This document shows positions 3,412 to 51,691 of a DNA stretch of 64,000 bases, piece after piece; position 1 is the first letter of the stretch; each line of letters opens with the position of its first letter. The DNA comes from a virus. Lineage: Duplodnaviria > Heunggongvirae > Uroviricota > Caudoviricetes. Under the pieces are notes generated by a model. It made no database searches, was not told the origin of the DNA, and saw only the letters and a program-made list of their open reading frames with translations. Both the position numbers and the translations under genes were made by a program. Location: the IMG/VR virus record IMGVR_UViG_3300005531_000248, positions 1 to 64,000 of that record. One strand, given 5' to 3'.

Positions 3412-3540
3412 AAAGTTGAGGGCGCCGGAACCGGCGGAAACGGTCCAGGCGCCCAGGATGGAAAAACACTTAGTCATGGACAGAATACAGGAAAACGGTT
3501 CCCGAAAAAATGTCTCGATGCAGATCGAGGAGGCATCGCG

Positions 3541-3936: not shown

Positions 3937-3961
3937 CCAGCATGGAAGCATATCTGAATAA

Positions 3962-6737: not shown

Positions 6738-6982
6738 TTGGAGAAATCGACTGGACTGATGTCAAAACCAAAGGACCAGATTCTCTAGAACAGCTTTATC
6801 CTACTGGAACTCCCATGAAAGAAGTACACCCGGAATTTCGAGGCATGAGCCTTCCGTTATGGCAGAAGTTGAAAATGCACGAGCGGGTCGAGAAGTATCT
6901 GAAGACGTCGAAGCCCGAAACGCCGGCTGCCATTTCCGATTGGCCGGGCCGCGAGCGAAGGATGAAGGCAAAGAGCGCATGA
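6734..6982 (+). CDS. hypothetical protein
   Basis: ORF track; GTG start right after RE-1; ATGA overlap with next gene. Confidence 0.35.
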   Translation: MIGEIDWTDVKTKGPDSLEQLYPTGTPMKEVHPEFRGMSLPLWQKLKMHERVEKYLKTSKPETPAAISDWPGRERRMKAKSA

Positions 6983-10617: not shown

Positions 10618-10863
10618 ATGACCTACATAGAACGTCACGGAGTTTTACTAATCTGGGGCGAACCAGTCAAACAGAACGAACTGGAGCGCACCGTTTCTGA
10701 ATTGTCTCTAAGATCCTTAGTTCAACAACGGGATCAGTACATCGAACTGCTGCAAGACAAAAACCGAACGCTGGAGCGCATCAACCGGCAGTTGCGGATT
10801 GTGGCGTTTGCTGCAACGGGCCTGCTCTTGGTGGTGGCTCTGATTCAGATAGGTGTCAAATGA
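10618..10863 (+). CDS. small protein with C-terminal TM helix
   Basis: coiled N-terminus; LRIVAFAATGLLLVVALIQIGV; ATGA overlap with next gene. Confidence 0.35.
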   Translation: MTYIERHGVLLIWGEPVKQNELERTVSELSLRSLVQQRDQYIELLQDKNRTLERINRQLRIVAFAATGLLLVVALIQIGVK

Positions 10864-13631
10864 GTACCGCTGCTGTTTCTGTCCAGAAATCGATGTTAAC
10901 GGGAGCTATCTGCCCGGAGTGCAAGCTACATCGGGGCCATCGCGCGAATTGCTCCAAAGGCCGGATAAACGAGTCTAGCGATCGCAGTCTCGAAGCCTAC
11001 CGTGAATTTCTGAAGCGCAAGGTATTGCTCTCGGACGAGTACGGGTTTGAAGTGGCCGATTCCGAGATCCACGCATCGCTGAAGCCTCATCAACGCATTG
11101 CAGTTCAGTGGGCCGTCCGTGGCGGCCGTCGGGCATTATTCGAATCCTTCGGTCTGGGAAAAACACGTCAGCAGCTTGAAATTCTGCGCCTCATCGTTCA
11201 GCGTGTGGGCGGCCGCGGCTTGATAGTGGCGCCGCTGGGTATACGACAGGAATTCCAGGCCGAAGCTGCGGAGCTCGGAACCGATCTGAAGTTCATCAAG
11301 TCCGATGCGGAAATATCGGGCGACGGACTGTACGCCACCAATTACGAGAGTGTCCGGGAAGGCAAACTTACAGCGTCCCGTTTCGTCGCGGCATCGCTCG
11401 ACGAGGCGGCCATATTGTCCGGCTTCGGCGGCGTGAAGACCTTCCGTGAGTTTATGCGGCAGTTCGACGCCGTGAAATACCGCTTTGTGGCCACGGCCAC
11501 GCCTGACCCGAACGAGTACATCGAACTTCTGGCCTATGCTGCCTTCCTGGGAGTAATGGAAGTCAGCCAAGCCAAAACCCGGTTTTTCAAACGGGACTCC
11601 ACCAAAGCCGATCATCTAACGCTGCACCCTCACAAAGAGCGGGAATTCTGGCTATGGGTAGCGTCCTGGGCTTTGTTCCTCGACAAGCCATCCGACTTCG
11701 GACCTGAGTTCTCAGACGAGGGCTATTCCCTGCCACCGCTCGATATACAGCTCCACGAGTTGCCAGTGGATCATGCTGCAGCTCTGCCGGATCGCGAAGG
11801 CCAGGGCAGACTGTACCGGGAATCGGCGCAAGGTCTGAGTGAGGCCGCACGCGAGAAGCGCGAGACCTTGGATGCCAGAATCGCGGAAATGAAGCGCATC
11901 GTCGACCTGGAGCCGGAGGAACACTTCATCCTTTGGCATGACCTCGAAGACGAGCGCCGCTCGATCAAGAAACTACTTCCCCAAGCCGCGGACGTATTCG
12001 GAATGCAGCGGACCTCGAAAGGCGGCTCCGAGAAGCTGGAGCAGTCCTTGATGGATTTCGCACAGGGCAAAGTTCAATACCTTGCCGCCAAACCATCCAT
12101 GTTTGGCGCCGGTTGCAATTTCCAAAAGCACTGCGCGCGTGCCATCTTCTGCGGGATCAATTACTCGTTTCGGCACTTCATCCAGGCGGTACACCGAATC
12201 TATCGCTTCTTGCAAAACAGAACGGTCACCATTCACCTGATCTACGCCGAAAGCGAGAAGAGCGTTTTATTGGCACTCCTCGAAAAATGGGAACGCTACA
12301 AACAGCAGTGCGCCAAGATGCGCGAGATTATCGCGGAGTTCGGACTGGCCCGAGAAGCCCTGAAAAGCGCCATGACACGCTCGCTCGGAATAACGCGCAT
12401 CGAGCGCGGCAGTGAGCATTATCTAATGGTCAACAACGATTGCGTGGAAGAGTTGCATCGTATGGAGTCCGGCAGTATCGATCTGGTTGTAACGTCCCCG
12501 CCGTTCTCGCACATGTACGAGTACTCGCCCAACTACGCCGACTTCGGCCATTCAGATTCGAACGAGCACTTTTGGGAGCAGATGGACTTCATGATTCCCC
12601 AGTTGCTGCGCGTTCTCCGGCCAGGCCGCACGGCCGCTATCCACGTCAAGGACCGCGTAGTGCCGGCTGGAATTTCGGGGCTAGGTTTTCAGACGATTTA
12701 TCCGTTCCACGCCGATTGCATCGCTCATTTCGTCAAAGCAGGTTTCGGCTTCATCGGCATGAAGACCATCGTCACGGATGTGGTGCGCGAGAATAACCAG
12801 ACCTATCGCCTCGGGTGGTCCGAGCAATGCAAGGACGGCACCAAGATGGGCTACGGGCTGCCGGAATACTTGCTGTTCTTCCGTAAGCCTCCAACAGATA
12901 CCTCCAATGGATATGGCGATAAGCCGGTTGTGAAGAGCAAACCGCTATGCGTGTCGGAGGCCGGCGAGATCGTTTCGTTTGACCGTGATCTTCCAATTCA
13001 GCCGGGAAGCGGGTACTCGCGATCACGCTGGCAGATCGACGCCCACGGATTCATGCGCTCGTCCGGCAATCGACCGCTTCGTCCAGAAGACCTCAACGGA
13101 CTGACCCACGAGCAGATTTTCAAGCTGTTCCGCAAGTACTCATCTGAAGAGATCTACGACTTCGAGCAGCACGTGAGGCTGGGCGAGGAGCTGGAGCAAA
13201 AAGGCACTCTGCCGGTCACGTTCATGCTCTTACAGCCGCAGTCCTGGCATCCGGACGTATGGACCGACGTAACGCGGATGCGCACGCTCAACAGTTCCCA
13301 GGCCTCGAAAGGCCGGGAGATGCATCTATGCGCGATGCAGTTCGATGTGTGCGATCGAGTCATCGCTCAGCTTTCGATGCCCGGAGAAGTGGTGCTAGAC
13401 CCCTTCGCGGGAATCGGAACCGTTCCATCGCGCGCGGTGATGCAGGGCCGATTCGGCCTGGGAATTGAACTGGCGCCGGGGTATTTCGCGGATGCGGTGA
13501 GCTATTGCAGAGCGGCCGAGGAGAAACGCGCGGCGCCCACACTGTTCGATCTGACGGAACTAGATTCCTCTGAGCGCGAACGCGGCCTGCCTCAACCCGT
13601 CGAGACCGCCGAGGGGAGCGTCAACATATAA
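10860..13631 (+). CDS. SNF2-family helicase fused to beta-class N6A/N4C DNA methyltransferase; C-terminus in RE-1
   Basis: N-terminal HQRIAVQWAV...FGLGKTRQQL...LIVAPLGIRQEFQ (SNF2_N), DEAAIL box, helicase-C GKVQYLAAKPSMFGAGCNFQ; C-terminal DLVVTSPPF (motif IV) then LDPFAGIGTV (motif I); ends SERERGLPQPVETAEGSVNI. Confidence 0.8.
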   Translation: MSTAAVSVQKSMLTGAICPECKLHRGHRANCSKGRINESSDRSLEAYREFLKRKVLLSDEYGFEVADSEIHASLKPHQRIAVQWAVRGGRRALFESFGLGKTRQQLEILRLIVQRVGGRGLIVAPLGIRQEFQAEAAELGTDLKFIKSDAEISGDGLYATNYESVREGKLTASRFVAASLDEAAILSGFGGVKTFREFMRQFDAVKYRFVATATPDPNEYIELLAYAAFLGVMEVSQAKTRFFKRDSTKADHLTLHPHKEREFWLWVASWALFLDKPSDFGPEFSDEGYSLPPLDIQLHELPVDHAAALPDREGQGRLYRESAQGLSEAAREKRETLDARIAEMKRIVDLEPEEHFILWHDLEDERRSIKKLLPQAADVFGMQRTSKGGSEKLEQSLMDFAQGKVQYLAAKPSMFGAGCNFQKHCARAIFCGINYSFRHFIQAVHRIYRFLQNRTVTIHLIYAESEKSVLLALLEKWERYKQQCAKMREIIAEFGLAREALKSAMTRSLGITRIERGSEHYLMVNNDCVEELHRMESGSIDLVVTSPPFSHMYEYSPNYADFGHSDSNEHFWEQMDFMIPQLLRVLRPGRTAAIHVKDRVVPAGISGLGFQTIYPFHADCIAHFVKAGFGFIGMKTIVTDVVRENNQTYRLGWSEQCKDGTKMGYGLPEYLLFFRKPPTDTSNGYGDKPVVKSKPLCVSEAGEIVSFDRDLPIQPGSGYSRSRWQIDAHGFMRSSGNRPLRPEDLNGLTHEQIFKLFRKYSSEEIYDFEQHVRLGEELEQKGTLPVTFMLLQPQSWHPDVWTDVTRMRTLNSSQASKGREMHLCAMQFDVCDRVIAQLSMPGEVVLDPFAGIGTVPSRAVMQGRFGLGIELAPGYFADAVSYCRAAEEKRAAPTLFDLTELDSSERERGLPQPVETAEGSVNI
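13571..13630 (+). repeat. RE-1 dispersed element (forward, subfamily A)
   Basis: gagcgcgaacgcggcctgcctcaacccgtcgagaccgccgaggggagcgtcaacatataa. Confidence 0.75.
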
Positions 13632-15906: not shown

Positions 15907-16274
15907 ATCAACGATTGTTTAAAAGGATCGAAATGAAACTTCTTTGGATCGCTACGCTGGCGTTGGCCGCCTTCGCATTGTGCTCCTGCGATGACCCAAC
16001 CATGCCCAAGGCGGCCAAGCCCTGCGAGGTATCGGACGCAACCGCAAAGGCGCAGGCCGAGGCCGCACGAAAGCAGGCCGAGATGCAGATCGAAGTAGAG
16101 AAGCGGTTCAAGGATATCCAGATTGCTACGCTGAACAAGTGCGTGGAATCGGGCGGCGCGCCGGTCATGATGGGCGGCAACGTGGACTGCAAACCGGCTC
16201 AAAAAGGAAACGCCCAGGTTGAAGCCGGGTCCTGGGGATTCCGGGTCAATCCGCCGGCGAAAGGAAATCGATGA
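15903..16274 (+). CDS. putative lipoprotein / secreted protein
   Basis: signal peptide MKLLWIATLALAAFALCSC (lipobox-like LCSC) then Ala/Lys/Glu-rich region. Confidence 0.45.
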   Translation: MNQRLFKRIEMKLLWIATLALAAFALCSCDDPTMPKAAKPCEVSDATAKAQAEAARKQAEMQIEVEKRFKDIQIATLNKCVESGGAPVMMGGNVDCKPAQKGNAQVEAGSWGFRVNPPAKGNR

Positions 16275-17194
16275 CTGAGGGCATTCTCACACCGCAGAAT
16301 ATCGTTTTAGCTTTGCTGGCGATCTTCGCCGTTATAGCCGTGTTCAGCGGGTTTTTCACAATCCACACCAAGCAGGCCGGGCTTGTGGAGCGGCTCGGAA
16401 AGTTCTCCCACATTGCTGGGCCGGGCCTGAATTTCAAAGTGCCTTTCATTGACTCTCTGGTTTACGTCGAAGACCTGAACATGCAACTGATGGACGTGTC
16501 GGTCCAGTCCAAGACCAAGGACGACGCCACGGTTACCATTCCCATCCGCGTTCAGTATTTCGTGCTCGCCGACAAGGTGAAGGAAGCCTACTACGAGCTG
16601 GACGACCCGGAAAAGCAGATCAAGGCCCACGTCGAGAACGTGATTCTGAGCTACATTCCCAAGCTCGATCTTGACGACACGTACAAACAGGAGGACCAGA
16701 TCGCGGCCCGAATCAAGGAAACCCTCACCACGGTGATGGCGAAATTCGGGTACTGCATCGAGAATGCACTCGTTACCAAGATTGTTCCGGCCGATGCCGT
16801 TGTAACGGCCATGAACGAGATCAACGCCGCACGGCGCGAAAAGATCGCGACCGAAGCCAGGGCCGAAGCCGCGAAGATCACACTCGTCAAAAAGGCCGAG
16901 GCCGAAGCGGAAGCTAAGGCTCTGCAAGGCCAGGGCGTAGCGAGAGAACGCAAGGCTATTGTAGATGGACTCCGGGATTCGGTTCAGGACTTCGAGGCGG
17001 GCGTGAAGGGAATCGACGCGCACGACGTCATGGCGTTGGTCATGATGACTCAATACTTCGATGCCTTGAAAGACATCGGAGCGAACAGCAACACGATCCT
17101 TCTGCCGCACTCCCCCGCCGCAGTCGCCGAACTCAGCGCGCAGCTTCGTGACGCTGTGACGGCTGGTTCGCTCGCCGCAAAGGGCAAGCAATAA
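16271..17194 (+). CDS. SPFH/band-7 (stomatin/prohibitin/HflKC-like) domain protein
   Basis: N-terminal TM; core VERLGKF...PGLNFKVPFIDSLVYVEDLNMQLMDV...; Ala/Glu-rich coiled-coil tail. Confidence 0.85.
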   Translation: MTEGILTPQNIVLALLAIFAVIAVFSGFFTIHTKQAGLVERLGKFSHIAGPGLNFKVPFIDSLVYVEDLNMQLMDVSVQSKTKDDATVTIPIRVQYFVLADKVKEAYYELDDPEKQIKAHVENVILSYIPKLDLDDTYKQEDQIAARIKETLTTVMAKFGYCIENALVTKIVPADAVVTAMNEINAARREKIATEARAEAAKITLVKKAEAEAEAKALQGQGVARERKAIVDGLRDSVQDFEAGVKGIDAHDVMALVMMTQYFDALKDIGANSNTILLPHSPAAVAELSAQLRDAVTAGSLAAKGKQ

Positions 17195-29153: not shown

Positions 29154-31334
29154 GTGGAACCTCCTTACATTCCCAGTGAAGATCTGGACCGAAGTCTAGC
29201 TCCAGCGCAATCTTCACGTTCCAAAAAGAAGTCCAAGGTTATAGTCTCGGCCAAGAAAAAAGAAGAAGTCATTCGTGATCCGAACGAAGACCTCTTAAAA
29301 CAAGCCCGTGATCGCTTCACTAAAGCAGCCCAGCACGATCAGAAATGGCGCGAACTCGCAACCGAAGAACTGGACTTTGTCGACGGCTTAGAGCACTGGT
29401 CGCAGGAAATGCGGCAGGACCGCAAAGGCGTACCCTGCCTGACCTTCGACCGCATCGGGCCATCGATCGACCAGGTGGTGAACGACGCCCGCCAGGACCC
29501 ACCCGAACCCAAAGTCAGCCCGGTAGGCGGAGGAGCGGACAAAGAGACAGCCGAGATTCTGGAGGGGCTTTACAGGAACATAGCCAACGACTCCAACGGC
29601 AAGATCGCCTTCATGACCGGCTACGAGCACGCGGTCAAGATCGGCCGCGGCTGGTGGCGTGTCAACAAGGTCTACGAATCGGAAGAAGACTTCGTACAAA
29701 AACTCGTAATCCGCCGCATCAAAAATCCGTTCTCGGTCTATCCCGACCCAGCCGCGGACGAATTCGACTACTCGGACATGAACTATTGCTTCGTGACCGA
29801 GGACCTCGACCCCGACCTGTTCAAGCAGTTGTATCCGGACGCCCTTGCTACAGGCATGGCGGACTGGCAGGCGCAGGGCGACCGCATCAAGCAGGACTGG
29901 TACCCGGAATCGAATATTCGGGTAGCCGAGTACTGGTATGTCGAGCGAACCAAGAAAACGCTGTATTTGCTGGACGACGGGCGCAAGGTAACTTCGCTTG
30001 ACCAGAAGGGCGAAGGGACGCAAGTGCTCGCGCAGCGCGAAGTCTACCTGCCTAAAGTGCAGTGGGCCAAGATGACCGGCATGGAAATCCTTGAGCAGGG
30101 CACGTGGGAAGGCAAATGGATTCCCATCATCCCGGTGATCGGCCGCGAAGTGATTATGAAGCAGCGCACCACCATGCGCGGCATGATCCGGCCGGCCATG
30201 GACGCCAATCTGTCCTATGACCTGATGCGGTCGAAACAGGTCGAAACCATCGGCCTTGCTCCCCTGTCGCCCTACCTGGCCGCCGCCGCGGCCATCGAAG
30301 GCCACGAGTACATCTGGGCGGATGCCAACCGCAAGCGCATTGGATACCTGCCCTGGAACCACATGGACGATCAGGGCAATCCAATCCCGAAGCCCGAACG
30401 AAATCTGTCAGAGCCGCCCATCCAGGCCGTGACCATGGCCGTGGCGGCCGCGGATAACGACGTCAAAGCTACGCTGGCAACCTTCGACGCTTCATTAGGT
30501 AACGACAGCCCCGAATCCTCGGGCCGAGCGATTCTGGCCCGGCAGCGCGAGGGCGACAACGCGCACTTCCACTACCACGACAATTTGCGGAGATCGGTCG
30601 AGCATACCGGCAGAGTAATCGTGGATCTGATTCCGCACGTCTACCGCGAAGAGCGCACCATCAACATTTTCGATCCCGACGGCTCACAGCGGGCAGTCCA
30701 GATCAACGCTCAGAAGATTACAGAAGGCGCGGACCGCATTTACAAACTGAATAATCCGGTGGCCCGCTTTGACGCCGTAGTTGGAAACGATCCGAGCTAC
30801 GCCACCAGGCGCCTGCAGGCATCCGCGCAGCTCATGGAATTGTTCCGCGCCGCGCCGCAAGTTCTGGTACGCGCGATCGACCTCATCATCCGCACCTTGG
30901 ATCTGCCGGACGGCGACGAGATCGCGGACCGGTTAAGGCCGCCCGACGTCCAGACGGACGCCAAGGACATCCCGCCGCAGGTCCAGGCCATGGTGGCCAA
31001 ACTCCAGGGCATCATTCAGGCCCAGGGCGTCCAGATCCAGACCTTGAAGGGCATCATCGACAAGAAGATTCTGGAACTCGAATCGAAGGAACGGCAAACC
31101 ACCGAGACCAATCTCACCAGGGTTTTGGTAGCGGAAGTCAGCGGCAAGTCGGCCGAGGCCCAGAAACTCGCCGAACTCGACCACCAATCGGTCAAGCACC
31201 GCCTGGACCTGGCCGCCGATCGCGAGCAGCAGCAGCAGCAAAACCAGCCCGGCCAGCAACCGGCGCAGGCGCAGCCGGAAACTGCAGGCGCAGCCACGAA
31301 CCCGCAGGAAGAACCCGAGCCAGTAGCGCAGTAA
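29154..31334 (+). CDS. portal protein, P22 gp1-like
   Basis: GTG start; W...R.GVPCLTFDRIGPSIDQVVNDARQDPPEPKVSPVGG...AEILEGLYRNIANDSNGKIAFMTGYEHAVKIGRGWWRV parallels P22 portal N-terminal region; 726 aa (P22 gp1 725 aa); Gln-rich C-terminal barrel. Confidence 0.75.
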   Translation: MEPPYIPSEDLDRSLAPAQSSRSKKKSKVIVSAKKKEEVIRDPNEDLLKQARDRFTKAAQHDQKWRELATEELDFVDGLEHWSQEMRQDRKGVPCLTFDRIGPSIDQVVNDARQDPPEPKVSPVGGGADKETAEILEGLYRNIANDSNGKIAFMTGYEHAVKIGRGWWRVNKVYESEEDFVQKLVIRRIKNPFSVYPDPAADEFDYSDMNYCFVTEDLDPDLFKQLYPDALATGMADWQAQGDRIKQDWYPESNIRVAEYWYVERTKKTLYLLDDGRKVTSLDQKGEGTQVLAQREVYLPKVQWAKMTGMEILEQGTWEGKWIPIIPVIGREVIMKQRTTMRGMIRPAMDANLSYDLMRSKQVETIGLAPLSPYLAAAAAIEGHEYIWADANRKRIGYLPWNHMDDQGNPIPKPERNLSEPPIQAVTMAVAAADNDVKATLATFDASLGNDSPESSGRAILARQREGDNAHFHYHDNLRRSVEHTGRVIVDLIPHVYREERTINIFDPDGSQRAVQINAQKITEGADRIYKLNNPVARFDAVVGNDPSYATRRLQASAQLMELFRAAPQVLVRAIDLIIRTLDLPDGDEIADRLRPPDVQTDAKDIPPQVQAMVAKLQGIIQAQGVQIQTLKGIIDKKILELESKERQTTETNLTRVLVAEVSGKSAEAQKLAELDHQSVKHRLDLAADREQQQQQNQPGQQPAQAQPETAGAATNPQEEPEPVAQ

Positions 31335-31361: not shown

Positions 31362-32516
31362 TTGCAGACTGAACAGATGGACGAGTTGAGCATTGCGTCG
31401 ATGACGCAAACGCCCGAAGAGATCCAAAAGGTTCTCGAGAGCTCCGGCCATACGGTCACCGAAACCCAGGTCCTGACCGACGGACCCCTACAAAACGCAC
31501 AAGAAACGGAACAGCCAGCAGAAACCAAGCCGGCCTCCGAGCACGCCGAAGAGACCGCCGCAACCGAGCAGACCCCCGCGCCGGCCAAACCCAAGAAGAA
31601 CACCTTCAAGGCCCTGCGCCAGCAGATTCGCGAGCTGAACCAAAAGCTGGCCGATCAGGAGCGGACCATCTCCGAGATGAAGACGCCGGCCGAAACGAAG
31701 ACTGCAGCTCCTGCAAAGGAAGCCGCGGTCGAGACGGACGAAGATCCGGCTCCCCAAGCGCCCGGTCCAAAACCGAACTTCGAAGACGAGCAGAAATACC
31801 CGCTCGGCCAATACGATCCTCAGTACATTGAGGACCTGGCGGACTGGCGCTACGATGTGCGCGAGCACCAGCGCATCACCAAGGAAAAAGAAAAGCGTGC
31901 ACAGGCCAAGGCCAAAGCCGCCGAAGAAAAAAAGGCAGAGCCAAAAACCGAGGCCAAGCCCGAGCCTTCCGCCGACGACAAACTCATTCAGGAGCGTTGG
32001 GCGGCCGAGCTCGCCTCGCAGCGCGCCAAGAATCCAGAGTTCGAGAAACTACTCGAAAAGACGCATGACAAGATTGTTTTTAGCAATGTGATGGGGTACG
32101 TTTTACCCCGCTTAGAGCGCGGTGGGGATGTGCTGTTTTATCTGGGCCAAAACCCGGATGTTGCGCACCGCATCGCCTCGGCGACCACATTGTCTGAGAA
32201 TGCAACCCGGCTAGAGACCGAAAAAGCTATAGCGCGGGCCTTCAAAGAGCTCGGAAAACTCGAAGATCAACTCGCCCCTCAGGACCCTCCGGAGCCTGAA
32301 GACGAGGAGATCGATGAGGTAGAGCAAGCGAAGCCCGAAGATCCTAAGCCGGCCAAAAAAGAGGTTGTAACGCCCGCCGCCCCCCCGCCCACTCCTGTAG
32401 GAAGCAGGGCCGCAGTGGCCGCAACTCGCGTGACGGAACTTCCGCCTGAAAAGTTGCGATCGCTCGACCCGGATGAATACCGCAGACAGGTAGAGAGCGC
32501 GCGGCGCCGCGGCTAA
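31362..32516 (+). CDS. scaffolding protein candidate
   Basis: acidic Ala/Glu/Lys/Pro-rich helical protein between portal and coat. Confidence 0.5.
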   Translation: MQTEQMDELSIASMTQTPEEIQKVLESSGHTVTETQVLTDGPLQNAQETEQPAETKPASEHAEETAATEQTPAPAKPKKNTFKALRQQIRELNQKLADQERTISEMKTPAETKTAAPAKEAAVETDEDPAPQAPGPKPNFEDEQKYPLGQYDPQYIEDLADWRYDVREHQRITKEKEKRAQAKAKAAEEKKAEPKTEAKPEPSADDKLIQERWAAELASQRAKNPEFEKLLEKTHDKIVFSNVMGYVLPRLERGGDVLFYLGQNPDVAHRIASATTLSENATRLETEKAIARAFKELGKLEDQLAPQDPPEPEDEEIDEVEQAKPEDPKPAKKEVVTPAAPPPTPVGSRAAVAATRVTELPPEKLRSLDPDEYRRQVESARRRG

Positions 32517-32619: not shown

Positions 32620-32766
32620 ATGGCAAATGAATTACTCAACCCGGTCGCGATTCTTCAAGAATCGTTGATGCGGTGGGAGAACAACCTGGTCTTCGCCAAG
32701 CAAGTTAATAGGGAGTTCGATGATAGGTTCGCAGTTCCTGGCGACAAAATCGGGTTAACAGTGTAG
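32620..32766 (+). CDS. major capsid (coat) protein 5' exon / N-arm fragment
   Basis: MANELLNPVAILQESLMRW... resembles P22 coat N-arm ([20 protein letters not shown]); same frame as 33163 ORF; SD aaagga upstream. Confidence 0.5.
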   Translation: MANELLNPVAILQESLMRWENNLVFAKQVNREFDDRFAVPGDKIGLTV

Positions 32767-33162
32767 CCCCACGCAGGAGAGATCCTGCGGAGAAAAACGA
32801 AGTGAATTCGGTGAATCCTACAGCCCGGAAGAGTAACAGCATCGGTGGTGCAACGGCGATGCTGTTAATGCAACTCTGTGTCTGGGCCATGGCGACGCCG
32901 AGCGAAGTCTCAGTGATGAACGAAGGTGCGGCGGCTAAAACCCTGGCCGAGGTTCACCAAAGAGAAACGTGTAACGACTATCCCGCAACGGGAGTAGAGC
33001 TAAGCAGCTCGAAGCGCTTCGGGTCCCAAGCCTCCTAGGCTTCGGATCGTGACATAGTCTGGTCCTCCTCGAAAGGGGAGCAAGTCTGGCTCAGCCCAAT
33101 GAGCGGACGCACACGGCCCTAGCGAGGCCGCTGCCAACGAAAACGACACCGTAAACGCCCGC
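32767..33162 (+). ncRNA. putative group I self-splicing intron (exact boundaries undetermined)
   Basis: P7-like R/S boxes AACGACUAUCC (~32978) and GACAUAGUCUGGUCC (~33043) cf. Tetrahymena AUAUAGUCGGACC; GNRA-capped hairpin CUCCUC-GAAA-GGGGAG after it; splits a coat gene whose two parts are in the same frame. Confidence 0.5.
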
Positions 33163-34257
33163 ATGCCAGTCCGCTTCCGCGGACGAATCGGCGACGGCAT
33201 TCAACTGGAAGACATCCGGGAAACCGTCGTGCCGGTAACCATCAACCGCCTGTGGGGCTGTGATCTGGACATCTCAGATCAAGACCTCACGCTAACCATC
33301 GACCGGTTCGGAGAGCGCTACATCGAGCCGGCCGTGCAGAGAATCGCGAACATGATCGACGGCGAAGGCCTCGATCTGTACGCCGACGTCTATAACCTGG
33401 CGCAATTGAACGTGACGCCCGGCGTCACTCCCACCACCCGCACCGCTTACACCGCTGCCGGTGTCACGCTGTCCAATTCCGGCGCCCCCTACGGCAGTCT
33501 CCGGGCCTTGGTGGTTTCTCCAGAGATGGAAGCGGCCGCCATCGAATTCGGTGCAACGCTCTTCAACCCGCCCAAGACCATCTCCGAGCAGTATCTTTCG
33601 GGAACCATGGGCCAGGCGCTGGGCTTCAAGTGGTCGATGGATCAGAACGTCTCGCGCGCTACCGTTGGCCTCGCCGGCGGAACGCCCGTGGTTAACGGCG
33701 CGAACCAGACCGGTTCTTCGCTGATCACCAGCGGCTGGACCGCCTCAACCCAGGTTCTGAATACCGGCGACATCATCAAGGTCGCGGGCGTCAACTCCGT
33801 CAACCCGATCTCCTATCGGGACACCGGGCAGCTCCGGACGTTCGTGGTGGGACCCAACTGCCCCGCCTCGGATGGATCTGGCAACCTGACGATTCCGATC
33901 TCGCCCGACATCAACATCGACGTCACCAGCCCCTTCCAGACCGTGACGCAATCGCCCGCCAATAACGCGGCCATCTTTGTTTACAACACCGCGGCTGCCA
34001 ACCTGGCGAACATCTCGGGCGTTTCCTCGCCCCAGGCGCTCGCTTTCCACCGCGATGCCTTTGCGCTCGCCATCGTCAACCTTGAACTGCCGGGCGGGCT
34101 CGACTGGTCCGAGCGCATCTCTAATCCCAAGGTCGGGATCAGCATGCGCCTGACGCGCGGCTTCGACATGCGCACCAACCGGCGCTACACGCGCTTAGAA
34201 GCATTCGGCGGATGGAAGACTCTCCGGCCGGAATTCGCGTGCCGGATCGCCGGCTAA
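33163..34257 (+). CDS. major capsid (coat) protein, P22 gp5-like, 3' part
   Basis: RETVVPVTINRLWG~SNTIWMPVEQE; ..PAVQRIANMID..~..IQSAARKLANNVE; IKVAGVNSV...TFVVG~ISFAGVKFL...TFSVV; C-terminal TLRPEF~ATRPEA. Confidence 0.8.
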   Translation: MPVRFRGRIGDGIQLEDIRETVVPVTINRLWGCDLDISDQDLTLTIDRFGERYIEPAVQRIANMIDGEGLDLYADVYNLAQLNVTPGVTPTTRTAYTAAGVTLSNSGAPYGSLRALVVSPEMEAAAIEFGATLFNPPKTISEQYLSGTMGQALGFKWSMDQNVSRATVGLAGGTPVVNGANQTGSSLITSGWTASTQVLNTGDIIKVAGVNSVNPISYRDTGQLRTFVVGPNCPASDGSGNLTIPISPDINIDVTSPFQTVTQSPANNAAIFVYNTAAANLANISGVSSPQALAFHRDAFALAIVNLELPGGLDWSERISNPKVGISMRLTRGFDMRTNRRYTRLEAFGGWKTLRPEFACRIAG

Positions 34258-34293: not shown

Positions 34294-35046
34294 ATGAAAC
34301 ACATCCTGAAACTCATTGCGGGTCTCTCTCTCGCTGCGGCTTCGCTCTTCGGGCAAGCCGCCATGACCTCCACCACGCTTTCGACCGCCGTGCCGTTGTC
34401 GCAGCGCGGCTTCAACACCACCGTGTTTGTTGCCAGCGCCACCGGCATCACCGCCCCCAGCGTTTCGACGCCTCAGGGCGGCGTGGGTTCTCCGACCGGC
34501 GGGCCGAACCTCACCGTTCTGTTCGTGGACAAAGAACTGATGCGCGTAAACGCCGTATCGGGAACCACGATCACGGTGGAGCGCGGCTACTCCGGCACCC
34601 CGGTTATGGCGCACAACTCCGGCGCCACGGTCTGGGTCGGAACGCCGAGCCAGTTCTATAACATCGATCCGTTCGGCGCCTGCACCGCTAGCGCTGTTCC
34701 AGTATTGCCGCGCGTGGTTTACACAACCGGCAACGTCTGGAACTGCGGATCGAACGGCCAATGGTTCGCCTGGACGTATTTCAATACCGCTCCTCAGGTC
34801 GGTACGGCTATCGCGTCGGCGGCGACCATCGCGCCCACGACTCCGGTGGTGCACGTAACCGGCACCACGACCATCAACACCATCACCGTGCCCTCAGGAT
34901 TTCCCAAGGGTGGCACGCTGATTCTTATTCCGGACGGCCTCTGGTCGACCGGGACTTCGGGCAACATCGCCATCGCGACCACGGGTGTCGTGTCGAAAGC
35001 GCTCCTTGAAGTTTGGGACGGCACGAAGTTTTACCCGAGTTATTAA
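34294..35046 (+). CDS. secreted protein, paralog of 27974..28450
   Basis: MKHILKLIAGLSLAAASLFGQA; LFVDKELMRVNAV..TTITVERGYSGT..AH.SGATVWVG; terminator-like hairpin CCTGCGG...CCGCAGGctcttttt at 35064-35100. Confidence 0.5.
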   Translation: MKHILKLIAGLSLAAASLFGQAAMTSTTLSTAVPLSQRGFNTTVFVASATGITAPSVSTPQGGVGSPTGGPNLTVLFVDKELMRVNAVSGTTITVERGYSGTPVMAHNSGATVWVGTPSQFYNIDPFGACTASAVPVLPRVVYTTGNVWNCGSNGQWFAWTYFNTAPQVGTAIASAATIAPTTPVVHVTGTTTINTITVPSGFPKGGTLILIPDGLWSTGTSGNIAIATTGVVSKALLEVWDGTKFYPSY

Positions 35047-40058: not shown

Positions 40059-40704
40059 CGACGAAGCCGTCGACTTTCTGCAGGCCTTGAATGACCTGAT
40101 CGATGGACTGTCGGCCGAGGAGCCAATGATCTACGCGCTTCCGGCGGCTCAGTTTGCCCTCACAAACTTAACCGGCGTGTACGCCATGGGCCCGACCGCC
40201 CCGGCGCCGTTCAATGTTCCGCGTCCGGTCAAGATCGCGCGCGCCAGTTTCATACAGGCCGTCACCGCGCTGCGCTTCGACCTGGACATCATCAACGCCG
40301 AACAGTACAACCTGATCCCTGAAAAGAATAACGTCGCCCAGGTGCCCCGGAAACTTTATCCGGACTACGCCGTGCCCAACATGAACCTGTCGCTCTGGCC
40401 GTACCCCTCGCAAGGCGGCCAGCTCGAGCTGATCACCTGGCAGGCCGTATCGGCGGTCCCGACGCTTCAGACCGTCCTTGTCCTACCTCCGGCCTACGCC
40501 GAGCTGCTCGAGTACATGCTCGCAGTCCGGATTTGGCCGGAACTCAATCCTGGCGTACCGCTCGACCAGGGCATCGTGCAACAGGCGCTCGATCGCAAGA
40601 CCGCAGTCATGACATTCAACCGGGCCATCCGGCTGGGGACCAGCGAAGGCACGCCGCCGGCCGCTCCGCCCACTGCTCCGATCACCGCGCCGACAGCGCA
40701 GTAA
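39985..40704 (+). CDS. virion structural protein, paralog B
   Basis: VLPPAYAELLEYMLAVRIW / LWPYP; Pro/Ala-rich tail. Confidence 0.5.
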   Translation: MTGLDLISRSMRITGALAQGESPGNDEAVDFLQALNDLIDGLSAEEPMIYALPAAQFALTNLTGVYAMGPTAPAPFNVPRPVKIARASFIQAVTALRFDLDIINAEQYNLIPEKNNVAQVPRKLYPDYAVPNMNLSLWPYPSQGGQLELITWQAVSAVPTLQTVLVLPPAYAELLEYMLAVRIWPELNPGVPLDQGIVQQALDRKTAVMTFNRAIRLGTSEGTPPAAPPTAPITAPTAQ

Positions 40705-40730
40705 CTCCGCAAACAAACCCCGAAACCAAC

Positions 40731-43325
40731 ATGAGAACGCTACTTTTAGCGCTTGCCCTGAGCGCCACGCTCGCCGCGCAGACGGCCGTCTATCCGGGCG
40801 CCGTGGTCACCGATCAGCAACTGAAAATCGCTGTCAACAATACGACGACTACGCTCAACGCGAGCATGCTCTCGACCGACAACGTCATCGTGGTCCAGAA
40901 CTCGACCGGCTTCGTTCCCAACATGCTGGTCACGGTCGATACCGAAATCATCGCCGTTTGCGCGGTCGCGGGAAATCTTCTCACCGTGGGGCACTCGTCC
41001 TGCCCGAATACTGACGGAAGAGGGTTCGACGGGACCACGGCCGCGTCGCACGTCGCCGGGGTGACTGTGAACGGGTTCGTAGACGCGTGGCATTCCAACG
41101 CGAAGAACAAAGAAATCGAGGCTATCGAAACCGCACTCGGTGCAAACCTCAGCCTGGTCAAAGCCTGGAACTCCCTTGCGGCGCCGACAGGAAATCTTTC
41201 GCTTGCGCTCGGCAATAACACCAGCTTATTCACGGCGGGAAACGCTACCGGGTCGAACATGGATGTTTGGAAAGTGACCGATACGGCCGGCAATACCGGC
41301 ACCGGAAACCTCCTGCATTTAACCACCACCTCGGGTTCGGCTCTCCACCCCGTTCAAATCGACAACAACGGCAACGGCCTGCAGATGTCGACCCTGGGCG
41401 TACTGTTCCCGGTCGGAACCGGAGGCATCGACGCCAGTTCCCTCACAAGCGGCAGTATCCCTGGCGCGCGCATCGCCAACTCGACCGTCACCAACGCCAT
41501 GCTGGCGGGCTCGATCGCGGCCTCGAAATTGATAGGGACCGATATCACGACCCTTGGGACGATCGGTACCGGGACGTGGCAGGGAACCGCTGTCGGAGTG
41601 CTGTACGGCGGCACCGGCGCCTCCACCGCAGCTACCGCGCGGGCGAACCTCAGCGCTGCGGCTTCGGGTCCAAACTCTGACATTACCTCTCTTACCGGTC
41701 TCGCCACACCGCTTTCTGTGGCGCAGGGCGGCACCGGCGTAACTTTGGCCCAAGGCAACGGAACTAAAGTCCAGTTGGCCTCAGGAGCGGCGGTTAGTGG
41801 CGATTGCGTCAAATATGACGCCAACGGAAACGCCGTGGACGCGGGCGCCCCATGCGGGACGGGTTCGGGCGGACCAAGCACCCTGATCGTGACGTCTACC
41901 TATAATTTCTCGCCGCAAACACCCGGTGGAACGCTGACGTCCGGCGTCACCAATACGGTCACCCTCACGCCATGCCCTCTCGGCGTAAATGGGTCAGATT
42001 TGGGGCACTATTACTACGTTTCTGGCGGAATTGGCGGCCCCGAGGCGGTGTTTGGCACTGGCGGAACATGCACATCCGGCGCAGCGTCTGGAACCCTGAC
42101 ATTTGTTCCTGTGAACAATCACTCCGGGGCGTGGACGATAGGACCCGCCAATGCAGGGCTACAGGAAGCATTCAATGTTGCGGGATTAACTCCGGTCTAT
42201 GTTCCTCCCGGCACGTGGCAAATCTACGCCCCGGCACGTCCACCTTCGGGTCAAACCTTAACCTGTGCTGGTAAGTTTACTACGTTCCTTCAAGCAACCG
42301 GCGCGGCAATTGGCATTATCGACGCGACCGGGACAAAAAACCGAATCGAGCACTGCGGCTTCACGGCCACAACACAACAAACTTCGGGCGGCTATGGCAT
42401 TCGTCTTGGAAACTGCGGCGCATCATGCGACAACGCATTCACCGTAATCAACGACAACTATTTCGAGCCGTTATACGATGCTGTTCTTAGCGTCAACGCG
42501 AGTCAAACGTGGTTCACCAATAACGTCTGCTACAACTTTTCGCACACTTGTTTCACTGCCGCCGATGCAAACTTCCCCGATAGTGATGGGCCGTGGGTGG
42601 CGAATAACGTGATGTTCAATTACAACCTCTCCAGTCCAGCGCTTGCGTGTCTGTACATCACAAGCTCAGGCGGAATCACGTTCCACCACAACAACTGCTT
42701 TGGGTCGGGGACCACAAATCTGAACTATAACGTCTACTTGAATTCAGTCGTCTCGACACAGCTAATCATCGACGATAACGTTCTTGAAACGGCGCAGGTA
42801 TCGAACATCTTTTTAAACGGTGCCTTCAATCTCATAGCGATCACCGGCAACACAATCGCCCAACCGCTCTGTAGTGGCTGCGGAGCACAGGGAATCCAGA
42901 TAGTCGGCAGCGCATCGTCCGGCCCCTCAATGTATCAAGGAACGATTACAGGTAATGTATTCCAGGGACCGGGACAATCCAACGCCTGGAAAGCGATCGC
43001 GATGGCCGAAGCAGCGGGCGGCACAAATATTGCATGGTACTTTGGTGGGAATTCCTTCAATCAAGTTAACACCCCGTACCTATTCCAAGATGCTGCTGAG
43101 CACGTCACGATTGGAACGAATCGTTACGACAATACGAACTTCACGATCAGCGGAACGCCCACGAATGTGATCATGTCGGATATGGGATTCCAGCCAACAT
43201 TTAGTGCTTTACCATCGCTAGCGAATGGCTCACAACTATTTGTCAGCGACGGTAATTCCACATGCACAGCCGGAAGCTCGACGGGCCGTACCTGCTTCCG
43301 CGAGAACGGCGCTTGGACCCACTAA
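40731..43325 (+). CDS. tailspike/tail-fibre-like protein with right-handed beta-helix (pectate-lyase-like) repeats
   Basis: N-terminal MRTLLLALALSATLAAQTA + module LVTVDTEIIAVCAV..; internal repeats NNVCYNFSHTCF / NNVMFNYNLSS / FHHNNCFGSG / NYNVYLNS. Confidence 0.55.
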   Translation: MRTLLLALALSATLAAQTAVYPGAVVTDQQLKIAVNNTTTTLNASMLSTDNVIVVQNSTGFVPNMLVTVDTEIIAVCAVAGNLLTVGHSSCPNTDGRGFDGTTAASHVAGVTVNGFVDAWHSNAKNKEIEAIETALGANLSLVKAWNSLAAPTGNLSLALGNNTSLFTAGNATGSNMDVWKVTDTAGNTGTGNLLHLTTTSGSALHPVQIDNNGNGLQMSTLGVLFPVGTGGIDASSLTSGSIPGARIANSTVTNAMLAGSIAASKLIGTDITTLGTIGTGTWQGTAVGVLYGGTGASTAATARANLSAAASGPNSDITSLTGLATPLSVAQGGTGVTLAQGNGTKVQLASGAAVSGDCVKYDANGNAVDAGAPCGTGSGGPSTLIVTSTYNFSPQTPGGTLTSGVTNTVTLTPCPLGVNGSDLGHYYYVSGGIGGPEAVFGTGGTCTSGAASGTLTFVPVNNHSGAWTIGPANAGLQEAFNVAGLTPVYVPPGTWQIYAPARPPSGQTLTCAGKFTTFLQATGAAIGIIDATGTKNRIEHCGFTATTQQTSGGYGIRLGNCGASCDNAFTVINDNYFEPLYDAVLSVNASQTWFTNNVCYNFSHTCFTAADANFPDSDGPWVANNVMFNYNLSSPALACLYITSSGGITFHHNNCFGSGTTNLNYNVYLNSVVSTQLIIDDNVLETAQVSNIFLNGAFNLIAITGNTIAQPLCSGCGAQGIQIVGSASSGPSMYQGTITGNVFQGPGQSNAWKAIAMAEAAGGTNIAWYFGGNSFNQVNTPYLFQDAAEHVTIGTNRYDNTNFTISGTPTNVIMSDMGFQPTFSALPSLANGSQLFVSDGNSTCTAGSSTGRTCFRENGAWTH

Positions 43326-47830: not shown

Positions 47831-49534
47831 ATGCTGCCAGTAGCTCTAGACGTTAAACCTCCCCAGTTCGCCAATCCCTTAGACCAGGCAGCCAGGCTCT
47901 ATTCCTTAAAAGGAGCGATCCAGGAAAATCAACTTCGCGCGCAACAGGTGCAGGCCGCCGAACTAGAAAACCAGCAGAGACAGACTCTCCTGCAAGATCA
48001 GAACACGATTAAGAACGAATTTGCCAAGACCGCCGCGGCCGATCCAAGTAAGCCAGTCGATTGGAATTCATTCCGGTCTGGACTTGACGGGAAGGTGAGC
48101 CCAACAACACTTCTCGCGCTCGACGCGGATCACTTGAAAATGCAACAGGCCGCGCAAGAGCTCGCGCTTTCACAAGAGACCACCGCTAAATCCAAGTACG
48201 AGAATCTCAAGACACGCAACCTCTTAGAAGGCCAAGCCCTAGCCGGAATCCTACAGGCGCCGCCGGAAAAGAAAATGGATTTCTACCAGAGCGCGCTTGA
48301 CAACTTGAGACAGCGGGGCATCGACACGAAGGATTACCCTCCAACCTATCCCGGCGACGACGAAGTGATGGCCCATGCCGCTAAGGTCGGATACCTCAGC
48401 ACTATTTTCGACAGCGCCGACAAAATGGCGAAAGCCAAAAAGGAACAGACCGACGCCGTCGACCAGGAAGTCTCCTCTTTTGCAAAGAACGCTCCCGATA
48501 ACCAAGAAGCATGGACCGCGCAGTGGAAAACGCTTTCGCCCGCTGCGCAGGCCAAGGTTCCAGCCATTTACTCGCCGGACGCCGTAGCAAAACTGACGCG
48601 CGCGCAAGTCCCGGTAGCCGAGCGTCCGAAATACGACATCGACCTCATGAATGCCGCAGCAGCGGCCAACATGAACCCTGCGAAACTGCGCGCCCAGGTT
48701 GACGGTGTGATCGATCCCCGCCGCTATCCGCTCCAAAATCAGCGCGCCAAAGCAGCCGCCGCGAATGCCCTACAAAACGGCCTCGGACTCAAGGGTGTCA
48801 ACGACGCCATTGAAAAGGGCGCTCAGTCAGTACAGGAGATCGAGCGTGAAGTCGACCCCGGTGTAATCAATGCGAGGGTTCAGGGCACGGTCCAAGCCCA
48901 AAGACAGCTGAATGCATCGTCGAACGCGGCACTCTCGAACGTACCGCCTCATCTTATTGCCCCGGCCACAGCCAACTACACCAAAATCAGCGATGAATAC
49001 GCCGATGCGGTAAACGCCGCAGACGAGATGCAGAGCATCATCGACCTTGCAAAGTCCGGGAACAAGGTCGCATACGCATACGCGCCCACTACCGGAGTCC
49101 TCACGATCAACGCCGGAAATCAGGTGAAGCGCGTCAATATGCCCGAGATTCAGACCTACGGCGGGGCTGGCTCCGCGCTCGATCGTTTACAGGGTTGGCT
49201 CGGAAAACAGACCAGCGGCCAATCGATTCCGCCGCAGATTTTGGACGCGATGCAGGATCTTCACGGGACGCTTGCAAAGGTGGCCGCCGAGCGCTACAGC
49301 AACAAGATCAATGTGCTGAACCAGTCCTACGGTTCGACCTTCAAGGGTGCCTCCATCCAACCGAGGGGTTCAAACACTTCGACCAAAGGTTCGGACGTTC
49401 CCGCGATTCCCCCCTCACTTTCACAGTCGGATGTCGGGAAAATCTATTTCTCGCCGAAGACCGGGAAAAAACTCAAGATCACAGCGGTCAATCCCAGCAA
49501 CCCGAAATTATTCACAGCAGAAGACGTTCAATAA
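47831..49534 (+). CDS. coiled-coil virion protein (internal/ejection protein candidate)
   Basis: Gln/Ala-rich heptad regions. Confidence 0.5.
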   Translation: MLPVALDVKPPQFANPLDQAARLYSLKGAIQENQLRAQQVQAAELENQQRQTLLQDQNTIKNEFAKTAAADPSKPVDWNSFRSGLDGKVSPTTLLALDADHLKMQQAAQELALSQETTAKSKYENLKTRNLLEGQALAGILQAPPEKKMDFYQSALDNLRQRGIDTKDYPPTYPGDDEVMAHAAKVGYLSTIFDSADKMAKAKKEQTDAVDQEVSSFAKNAPDNQEAWTAQWKTLSPAAQAKVPAIYSPDAVAKLTRAQVPVAERPKYDIDLMNAAAAANMNPAKLRAQVDGVIDPRRYPLQNQRAKAAAANALQNGLGLKGVNDAIEKGAQSVQEIEREVDPGVINARVQGTVQAQRQLNASSNAALSNVPPHLIAPATANYTKISDEYADAVNAADEMQSIIDLAKSGNKVAYAYAPTTGVLTINAGNQVKRVNMPEIQTYGGAGSALDRLQGWLGKQTSGQSIPPQILDAMQDLHGTLAKVAAERYSNKINVLNQSYGSTFKGASIQPRGSNTSTKGSDVPAIPPSLSQSDVGKIYFSPKTGKKLKITAVNPSNPKLFTAEDVQ

Positions 49535-51691
49535 GTGCCCGACCCACAAACAGTACAGTGGCAGTCTACCGACGACCATGCCGGTCCGTCTGTCGCAGGA
49601 CCGTCGCAGTGGCAGTCCACCGACGACCATATCACCACCAAAACCCCTTCGCTCGACTGGTCTAGGGTCATTCAAAATCTCCCCGGCAGCCTGAAAAACC
49701 TCGTCACATCCACTGCTCCGGGGCCGAACAGCGACTCTCTGCCGCCCGTACCGGGATTTCCGGCCAGGAAAGACTTTCAGTCCGATGCGGACTATGAAGC
49801 GGCTTTTCAAAAGGCGCTGGAAACGAAGACACCGTTAACAGGCCGGTTTTCCAACGCTCATCCAGACTTCGCGAGCCGCTTTCCAATGCTCGCTTCCGGC
49901 TTCGACTCTGTAGAAGAACTCGCGCACAACATCACCCATCCACGGGAGTTTTTCGAGAAAGATCCGGTCGGTGCCGCAAACACCTACGGAAATATCATGG
50001 CCGGCGGCCTGAAGGGTCTAGCTAAGGCCGCGCCAGAGACGGCTGACAGTGCAGTCGCCGCAACAAAAGGCGCCGGCAAGGGGGCCGTCGATTCACTCAA
50101 AAAGCTTAACTACAAGACGGACATTATGCTGCCGGGCTTTGCGGGCCAAGCTGTGGGAGTCGGCTATCACGGCGGTATTGGTCTAGCCCTGGGCGGAAAA
50201 ATGGTGACTGGCGCTGTTCGGGGCGCCTTGGATGCACTCGCCGCACGCCACGCAGAATTAGCCGAGGCCACCGCTGCCAGAGATGCTGCGGCCGCAAAAG
50301 CCGCCGACGCGATAAGAGCCAACATCCCGAAGGCTGAATCTGCCCCGGCCGCAACAGCCGAACAGCCTCCGGTTCCCCTGCCTGAGTCGCGACAATTACC
50401 CGCTCCTTCAGGAAAGCCGCCCATCATCGCTGGCCCTATCACTCCACAAGGGATCACCGGCCAGGATGTCACGGCAAGCAACCGCCCGATCGATGAAGCC
50501 GCCCCGGCAACTCCTCCTGCTTCACCCGATGCCGCCCCTCGCGACGGAGAAATCATCAGTAAGGATGAACTGGCGCAATCGGCAGACGTCACCGCCAAAC
50601 CCCGTACAAAGTACGCAGAGTTAAGCGAAGAGGACAAGGCTAGGGTCGATAGCGTATATCGCGGACTCCACGACCGGCCGCTTTCTCCCGCTGCTGCGCT
50701 GCCTACCACCCCAGAAAGCACCCGCGTAGAATGGCAAACGCCCGCCGAAAAAGCTGCCGCAGCCGCAAAGAGCGGTGCCCAGGCAAATTCTCCTACAGCG
50801 GAAGTCTCCAAGGCCGCAGACGCTAATCCTGCGCCGGCCAAAGAAACTCCGGCCGAGGAACCCCACAGCTTTTCAAGCACACAGGTTCAACTCCCTCCAT
50901 CTGCGCCAACCTCCCGCGTCGTGAATCTTCCCGGAGACGCGAGCAAGGCTTTCGCGCCGGCCAAGATCATGAGCGAAGAAGGCCTCACGCAGTACGCTCG
51001 CGAAAATGGATTAGGGGAGGACGAAGCCCGCCAAAACCTCGAAGGCGATGGATACCAGATCGTCGGACGGTCCTATATCAACCGGGCGCTTCACGGCATT
51101 GGATCGGAACTCGGATTAGATCACGAGGCGCTTTCCGACGTCGCGAAAATGCAGTACCGCGTAAAATCCATGACTCAGTTGAGCCAGGAGAACATGCTCG
51201 AGCTGTACCAGAATCTTCTCGACAAACGATCCATCAGTGAACCATTGCGGGGTAAGTTAGAAATGGCTGAGGAAGCTCAGAAGAGCAAAACGCAGCAGTG
51301 GACGCCACCTGCGGTTGCTTCCCCTGGGGATACCCCCCGTCAGGCCGGTGTGGTTGAGCCCAGCGTATCGCCAGCACCCCCTTCTTCCCTTCCGGAATCT
51401 GCTGCGGCGGGTTCCTCACGTTCGGCGCAGAAAGAGGCAGCGGGAGCGAACACCGACGTCCCCTCCGCACTCAAGAACAATCCGAAGGCGCTGGCCGCTG
51501 CGCAGGCACTTAAGGATGCCCTGGAGAAACCCGAAGATCTGAAAAACGCCGCCGCACTGGAAACAACCGAAGCCCCGGCCACGCCCGTAAAAAGCTGGCC
51601 GCTGATCAACGTGGGCGACGTAGTGCAGATCAAGAGTGGCCGATTTGTGAAGGTAAAGGGACTCAGGCCAGACGGGTCGATCATATACTGA
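49535..51691 (+). CDS. large Pro/Ala-rich virion protein (ejection protein candidate)
   Basis: 718 aa; contiguous with previous gene. Confidence 0.5.
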   Translation: MPDPQTVQWQSTDDHAGPSVAGPSQWQSTDDHITTKTPSLDWSRVIQNLPGSLKNLVTSTAPGPNSDSLPPVPGFPARKDFQSDADYEAAFQKALETKTPLTGRFSNAHPDFASRFPMLASGFDSVEELAHNITHPREFFEKDPVGAANTYGNIMAGGLKGLAKAAPETADSAVAATKGAGKGAVDSLKKLNYKTDIMLPGFAGQAVGVGYHGGIGLALGGKMVTGAVRGALDALAARHAELAEATAARDAAAAKAADAIRANIPKAESAPAATAEQPPVPLPESRQLPAPSGKPPIIAGPITPQGITGQDVTASNRPIDEAAPATPPASPDAAPRDGEIISKDELAQSADVTAKPRTKYAELSEEDKARVDSVYRGLHDRPLSPAAALPTTPESTRVEWQTPAEKAAAAAKSGAQANSPTAEVSKAADANPAPAKETPAEEPHSFSSTQVQLPPSAPTSRVVNLPGDASKAFAPAKIMSEEGLTQYARENGLGEDEARQNLEGDGYQIVGRSYINRALHGIGSELGLDHEALSDVAKMQYRVKSMTQLSQENMLELYQNLLDKRSISEPLRGKLEMAEEAQKSKTQQWTPPAVASPGDTPRQAGVVEPSVSPAPPSSLPESAAAGSSRSAQKEAAGANTDVPSALKNNPKALAAAQALKDALEKPEDLKNAAALETTEAPATPVKSWPLINVGDVVQIKSGRFVKVKGLRPDGSIIY

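Follow-up and report, generated by a model that had tools for sequence, protein, structure and literature searches.

A group I intron predicted to be spliced from the P22-type coat protein gene of an uncultured tailed phage

Phages are well known to carry group I introns in conserved genes (PMC3984707), and the usual phage type is an IA2 or IA3 intron that carries an HNH open reading frame (ORF) (PMC11878797, PMC3428280). Introns in capsid genes are also known, from mycobacteriophage LittleE and lactococcal phage Tuc2009 (PMC3706429). The LittleE intron, which is about 820 nucleotides (nt) long and has a LAGLIDADG-like ORF on its opposite strand, was called "most likely group I", and its splicing was shown via reverse transcription polymerase chain reaction and N-terminal sequencing, with a U ending exon 1 and a G ending the intron (PMC3706429). 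Here we describe a 64,000-nt stretch of tailed-phage DNA (positions 1 to 64,000 of IMG/VR record IMGVR_UViG_3300005531_000248; hereafter the window), in which positions 32620-34257 of the plus strand, the strand of the gene and of every intron element given below, hold a single P22-type coat gene split by an insert. A preliminary description, made from the letters of the sequence, had noticed both the split gene and the signature boxes of a group I intron. Our analysis makes it very probable that the coat gene carries a group I intron, spliced at U32755/G33145 to yield a coat protein of 415 amino acids (aa). The intron (32756-33145, 390 nt) is subgroup IA-like and has no endonuclease gene. The window intron adds one more case to the phage capsid-gene introns of group I that are already on record; less ordinary are the intron density in the coat gene of this clade (four within about 85 codons at locus L064), the micro-exons and the near-half share of truncated homologue clusters.

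The window intron was compared with the phage IA (IA2-type) introns of T4 td, nrdB and nrdD, the SPO1 and Bastille DNA polymerase genes, Twort orf142 and nrdE, and the DNA polymerase gene of cyanophage Pf-WMP3. It shares with them the P1-P9 core, the P7.1 and P7.2 helices, the U·G pair at the splice site, the omega-G, an early in-frame stop and a conserved host gene, and its related copies hold HNH-class ORFs in a peripheral loop (PMC3984707, PMC11878797, PMC3428280). In contrast to the listed introns, it resides in a P22-type coat gene of a GC-rich (57%), uncultured, soil-type metagenome lineage, and the window copy lacks an ORF. A specific IA2 likeness to the Twort and T4 introns is presumed, in keeping with the literature, where phage introns are mostly IA2 or IA3 (PMC11878797); the window intron itself is graded as subgroup IA only. 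As in LittleE and Tuc2009, the gene interrupted is that of the major capsid subunit of a tailed phage; the capsids of those two phages are, however, siphovirus proteins and not P22-type coat proteins, and the likeness is one of gene setting. In Twort, three group I introns interrupt one gene, orf142, whereas the window's gene has one; the multi-intron state is seen in the window's relatives, which reach four introns in some 85 codons and have micro-exons of about 20-39 nt.

The two coding parts of the gene were identified by profile searches. The ORF at 32620-32766 (48 aa, starting MANELLNPVAILQESLMRW) aligned with phrog_283, a profile of major head proteins, over positions 1-45 (E 3.4e-5), and the ORF at 33163-34257 (364 aa) matched positions 63-423 of the 423 in Pfam P22_CoatProtein (E 6.8e-28) as well as positions 65-383 of phrog_283. 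These matches agree with the proposal of the preliminary description that the first is the N-terminal part of the coat protein and the second a gp5-like remainder. Both ORFs lie in frame 1 (32620 and 33163 are each 1 mod 3) and are separated, as had been noted, by a stop-containing segment, the first ORF ending at a UAG at 32764-32766. Some of the earlier figures changed. The intervening segment, put at about 400 nt, is present and measures exactly 390 nt, a multiple of three; the long ORF lacks not about 30 but 51 N-terminal residues, namely the 45 encoded by exon 1, the split Tyr46 and five encoded 5' of its ATG; and the full-length product, expected at about 410 aa, is predicted at 415 aa.

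To place the splice sites, all frame-open U|...G| junctions were listed and scored on two counts, identity to the nearest uninterrupted homologue and P1 pairing. Only one junction, U32755|...G33145|, was best in both homologue identity and P1 helix, and alignment to uninterrupted homologues likewise placed the 5' splice-site base at U32755. Exon 1 (32620-32755) thereby comprises codons 1-45 and the first base, U, of the Tyr46 codon, and exon 2 (33146-34257) the last two bases of that codon, codons 47-415 and the stop. The ligated exon sequence is ...AAAAUCGGGU|ACACCGUAAAC..., and the junction read predicted from it is ...AAAAUCGGGU|ACACCGUAAACGCC.... Joining the Tyr46 codon as T|AC recreates KIGYTVNARMPVRF and gives a junction, KIG-Y-TVNARMPVRF, that is the same as in uninterrupted homologues: the spliced protein reads ...FAVPGDKIG-Y-TVNARMPVRFRGRIGD..., and the uninterrupted homologue P0041 reads ...EKIGYTVNARMPVRFRGRIGD.... 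The predicted 415-aa product matched Pfam PF11651 (P22_CoatProtein) in a single stretch over positions 1-423 of 423 with 117.8 bits, compared with 98 for the truncated ORF, and passed the curated cut-off of 24 bits; it also matched positions 1-383 of the 385 in phrog_283 (E 2.6e-65).

The insert was then assigned by three kinds of model. Rfam RF00028 (Intron_gpI) matched a 901-nt region at 32747-33081 over the full length of the model (positions 1-253, E 5.8e-10). A profile built with nhmmer from nine ORF-less introns found exactly one copy in the window, at 32757-33145 (E 9e-48). A covariance model, R1, was built from eight introns of other contigs with the window sequence left out; with default filters it gave a single match in the 64 kb, whose ends fell exactly at 32756 and 33145 (131.7 bits, E about 2e-42, model positions 1-266). 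The sequence boxes that had first drawn attention to the insert were located at 32973-32983 (R box, AACGACUAUCC) and 33051-33065 (S box, GACAUAGUCUGGUCC), 67 nt apart, and their GACUA and UAGUC segments are perfectly complementary. Thus the group I reading of the preliminary description was upheld, much more firmly than by the Rfam match, by the junction scoring, the continuous profile match, the window-free covariance model and the compensatory changes described below.

An explicit structure of 59 pairs, which adds P1 and the P7 pseudoknot, was tested on nine related introns. As many as 97.5% of its cells were paired, compared with 34-45% when the partners were slid by 1-3 columns, and compensatory changes occurred in 46 of the 59 pairs; none of 500 shuffles reached the observed values. 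RNAalifold, applied to the same nine introns, returned P2, P3, P4, P5, P6, P7.1, P7.2, P8 and P9, with compensatory double changes in 39 of 49 pairs. Compensatory changes back every core helix, including the P7 (R/S) pairing. The unconstrained minimum-energy fold of the window RNA recovered the core helices (z = -4.0 vs shuffles), and 56 of the 59 consensus pairs are intact in the window's own row.

At the 5' end, P1 (32752-32769) pairs the exon GGGU and the first intron U (32752-32756) with AGCCC (32765-32769), and the internal guide sequence lies within 32761-32769. The wobble at the 5' splice site is formed by U32755 and G32766, and this U·G was invariant in all nine introns. The guide tracks its target across six sequences (GGGU/GCCC, GGAU/GUCC, CCAU/GUGG, GGGGU/GCCCC, GAGU/GCUC and CAGU/GCUG). 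The UAG at 32764-32766, in frame with exon 1 and three codons into the intron, falls within P1. The P2 hairpin GCAGGA/UCCUGC occupies 32773-32788 (five of six pairs compensatory), and the 5' strand of P3, CGAAGUG (32798-32804), pairs with CGCUUCG at 33015-33021, five of the seven pairs being compensatory and the 3' strand being backed by covariation. P4 (32808-32813 with 32896-32901) and P5 (32817-32818 with 32891-32892), supported by alignment and fold, span 32808-32901; the extension hairpin of P5 (about 32823-32886) is long and absent from most relatives. P6 and an extended P6a follow at 32903-32969, the loop that holds an HNH endonuclease ORF in relatives.

The 5' strand of P7, GACUA (32976-32980, the R box), pairs with UAGUC (33055-33059, the S box, backed by covariation) and is pseudoknotted with P3. 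This helix was 100% paired, with three of five pairs compensatory: where the window has GACUA/UAGUC, relatives have GAUCA/UGAUC, GACCA/UGGUC or GGUCA/UGACC. P7.1 (32981-32984 with 32990-32993) and P7.2 (32997-33001 with 33006-33010), which together span 32981-33010, separate P7 from the 3' strand of P3, and eight of their nine pairs are compensatory. P7.1 and P7.2 in this position are a hallmark of subgroup IA, and the intron was placed in that subgroup because of them. P8 (33022-33048) was supported by covariation and fold, and P9 (33065-33080, CUCCUC-GAAA-GGGGAG, with the GAAA loop at 33071-33074) by Rfam, covariation and fold, in agreement with the GAAA-capped P9 hairpin noted earlier. Thermodynamic prediction places peripheral 3' hairpins, P9.1/P9.2-like, at 33084-33140. 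The intron's 3'-terminal guanosine, G33145, is the omega-G and was invariant across the alignment, and exon-2 ACAC (33146-33149) can pair with GUGU (32761-32764) as a candidate P10.

Several points weigh against this assignment. The score of the Rfam match, 44.6 bits, is 5.4 below the curated gathering score of 50, so that the Rfam check proposed in the preliminary description returned a full-length match that stays under the threshold. Rfam scans of all 64 kb, whether cut at the gathering score or at E<=0.01, gave no match, the intron included, because of speed filters. The nine sequences behind the covariation are related to each other, the region 33084-33140 aligns poorly among relatives and lacks comparative support, and the candidate P10 is just 4 base pairs long and is weak or absent in most relatives. 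Furthermore, splicing and catalysis are predicted from sequence, structure and covariation, and, as some group I introns need protein cofactors, the intron may not be "self"-splicing in the strict sense. The group I class itself is supported by sequence, structure, covariation, the exact restoration of the frame, and the occurrence of intron-plus and intron-minus alleles.

Taken together, the three rival explanations that we weighed account for only a very small part of the probability. The one that survives best, which we still consider very unlikely, is that the insert is an inactive group I intron and the coat gene a pseudogene in a decaying prophage. It would fit the absence of an endonuclease gene, the lineage-specific extensions in P5, P6 and P8 and the sub-threshold Rfam score, and the phage may not be viable. 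These extensions, however, sit in insertion-tolerant peripheral loops and fold as hairpins, and the intact consensus pairs stand together with an intact invariant U·G, omega-G and P7 bases. As for the gene, no frameshift or stop disrupts either exon, both share 60-68% identity with full-length homologues, and the adjoining portal and scaffold genes are intact.

To place the intron-bearing gene among its relatives, we assembled 66 loci from scans of viral, genome and metagenome contigs and from look-ups of truncated homologues. Mapping by tblastn showed that the coat gene is in pieces in many relatives and that their inserts have core blocks in common with the window's insert. The same Tyr-codon site is occupied in L009, L022, L024, L032, L055, L059 and L062, and other intron copies lie after residues 12, 32, 48/49, about 51, about 79, 83, about 190 and about 388, making about nine coat-gene intron sites in total among the relatives. 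The nine-intron profile found one to four copies per interrupted relative, all within coat genes. When model R1 was run on 53 loci, it found introns in 15 distinct coat loci and in none of more than 30 uninterrupted loci. Intron-less alleles have a contiguous DNA target, ...AARNYNGGNT|AYACN..., for example the sequence ...AAAATCGGNTAYACNGT....

Seven loci (L022, L024, L032, L060, L062, L063 and L064) have two to four homologous introns in the first 85 or so coat codons. At L064 (250-2455) four introns follow residues 12, 46, about 51 and about 79. Micro-exons result: 39 nt in L024 (2160-2198) and L032 (2711-2749), and about 20 nt in L064 (about 1674-1693), the boundaries of the last being set by eye. 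At another locus, L065 (1501-3016; GenBank MW202674.1, 16569-18084), two coding sequences are annotated as "P22 coat protein" with a small "hypothetical protein" between them, and the insert of about 220 nt has P7-like boxes, ACGACUA...GAUAGUC. This insert had no match by Rfam, nhmmer or model R1, and it may be a more divergent, unrecognised intron.

The relatives also bear on the suggestion that the locus holds two genes independent of each other, one for a small conserved protein of 48 aa and one for an N-terminally shortened coat protein translated from the ATG at 33163, with a structured non-coding spacer between them. Gene callers and public databases do hold the 364-aa product (as protein P0001) and similar truncated products as proteins, and gene calls in relatives place small ORFs of 45-48 aa upstream. 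On the other hand, the coat gene runs continuously through the Tyr46 point, with the same residues, in 57 of the 120 closest homologue clusters. Of the 120, 55 hold N-terminally truncated coat proteins that look truncated at intron sites, and the truncation points in relatives follow intron positions rather than a conserved start. The 48-aa ORF covers positions 1-45 of the coat profile and runs on until it meets a stop within the intron. The preliminary description had named a separate, conserved small ORF in homologous phages as a finding that would tell against an intron, and this is not what the relatives show: where the small ORF stands apart, a homologous intron lies between the pieces, and in many other relatives the gene is continuous. 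We regard two independent genes as extremely improbable. A look-up of contigs encoding the window's own 364-aa product returned none.

Some other interruption deserves next to no credence: the multiple-of-three length of the insert and the single frame of the exons would suit it, but covariation backs a group I core, and the in-frame stops in the insert rule out an intein; against a group II intron stands the lack of a reverse transcriptase ORF and of any Rfam match to group II or another family, against an insertion sequence, IStron or miniature transposon the lack of a transposase ORF in the insert, and against a translational bypass like that of T4 gene 60 a length, 390 nt, that far exceeds known bypass gaps.

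If the group I intron acts as its structure predicts, splicing would follow the established group I pathway. The pre-mRNA would fold into the ribozyme core, and an external guanosine held in P7 would attack the phosphate 3' of U32755, this base being positioned in P1 via its U·G wobble with the internal guide sequence. The freed 3'-OH of exon 1 would then attack after G33145, with P10 aligning exon 2, so that the exons would be ligated, the intron released and the mature mRNA translated into the 415-aa coat protein. With a UAG in frame just three codons past the 5' splice site, ribosomes are probably halted before they can unfold the ribozyme. Phage group I introns often have such an early stop, which is thought to stall ribosomes and protect folding (PMC3984707).

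Next, we examined the intron for a homing endonuclease gene. None was found in the window's copy, in which the only open frame is one of 49 codons (32889-33038), and this copy is at best passively mobile. In relatives with an intron at the Tyr-codon site, the P6 loop holds ORFs of 188-279 aa, such as that at 1892-2458 of L059, with the common motif CxCCGE..FLTxDH..LCxNCNxGKRxNxGxCPHQ. These ORFs matched phrog_2255 "HNH endonuclease" (E 7e-13 to 9e-21) and also endonuclease VII-like PHROGs families; their Pfam HNH matches were sub-threshold (E 0.02-0.05), and a profile search of PDB sequences with them gave nothing meaningful. The 49-codon frame can be aligned with both termini, N and C, of the endonuclease ORFs in relatives, a similarity that is in part forced by the shared ribozyme core, and the frame is a probable remnant of an internally deleted homing-endonuclease gene. 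The window's intron is a non-autonomous member of a mobile intron family, most likely acquired by homing with later loss of the endonuclease gene, a history of loss that we infer from these alignments.

At L064, a free-standing GIY-YIG/I-TevI-like endonuclease gene (3500-4297) lies directly 3' of the coat gene, with matches to Pfam GIY-YIG (E 7e-7) and I-TevI_DNA-bd (E 6e-7); it represents a second homing-endonuclease class at the coat locus.

A wider interpretation, which we offer tentatively and think rather doubtful, is that the 5' end of the coat gene is an intron-homing hot spot of a possibly Acidobacteriota-associated P22-like clade. One IA family with retargeted guides and HNH genes would have spread to about nine codons, its endonucleases may act against co-infecting relatives, and the window's ORF-less copy would be an immunising "scar" that destroys the target. 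With up to four introns in 85 codons and nearly half of the sampled clade interrupted, few bacterial-virus genes would, if this is true, be more densely colonised by group I introns. The intron endonuclease of phage PhiPA3 was shown to be a weapon in competition between co-infecting phages (PMC11620839). With regard to the host, the genome-contig scan returned just two distant uninterrupted relatives, in Bryobacteraceae and Ca. Sabulitectum metagenome-assembled genomes, and the host assignment is therefore weak.

The core of the intron resembles sequences in about 100 deposited phage genomes. In Pseudomonas phage vB_PsyM_KIL1 (NC_030934; locus L066), related introns lie at 611-881 and 2292-2668 of L066, in the terminase-large-subunit and portal genes. 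In ribozyme sequence they are of one family with the window's intron (nhmmer E 2.6e-31 and 1.4e-19; R1 151.7 and 102 bits), and in KIL1, as in the window, head-morphogenesis genes hold the introns, which are annotated there as joined coding sequences. In contrast to the window's intron, those of KIL1 interrupt different genes in a different phage group, a Pseudomonas myovirus, and they pass the Rfam gathering score (59.9 and 68.9 bits), whereas the window copy fails it. The KIL1 match ties the uncultured soil-type phage clade to cultured myoviruses.

These data have consequences for sequence databases. The true coat protein is most probably the 415-aa product and not the stored 364-aa fragment, and dozens of related database entries are likewise truncated. 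Routine annotation overlooks this intron family because of the Rfam filters and the 50-bit cut-off, and consequently public sets hold many truncated coat proteins. Since standard Rfam scanning misses the intron, counts of introns in phage genes from metagenomes are probably too low. The known hosts of IA group I introns now include a GC-rich soil-type phage lineage and a P22-type coat gene. No late gene is more highly expressed than that of the coat protein, and splicing would therefore have to be efficient. Moreover, the same ribozyme retargeted to many sites, with or without an HNH gene and with micro-exons, is a natural dataset for retargeting and for endonuclease gain and loss, and the intron set may also serve the study of intron-mediated phage competition.

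The genes around the coat gene were examined as well. Upstream, the gene at 29154-31334 encodes a P22-type portal protein (Pfam P22_portal, E 1e-148) and that at 31362-32516 is scaffold-like; a tail-like ORF lies downstream. Because portal, scaffold-like, coat and tail-like genes adjoin, the locus is assigned, from its predicted gene content, as the head-morphogenesis module of a P22-like phage or prophage. Most other large ORFs of the window (e.g., 40533-43325, 47831-51691 and 57064-62257) had no Pfam match, and ARAGORN, run on the window, gave neither a tRNA nor a tmRNA. A stretch of about 1 kb at its end (62574-63596) contains no ORF of at least 80 aa, and 62400-64000 gave no Rfam match (E<=1). 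The N-terminus of the ORF right after the coat gene (34294-35046) resembles a signal peptide (MKHILKLIAGLSLAAASLFGQAA...), and this ORF weakly matched PHROGs of tails or tail fibres (E 2e-7). Genes that precede the head module encode a HerA/DUF87-like ATPase (6859-8781), a protein of 923 aa (10860-13631) that contains an N6/N4 DNA methylase domain, and an SPFH/Band 7 protein (16271-17194).

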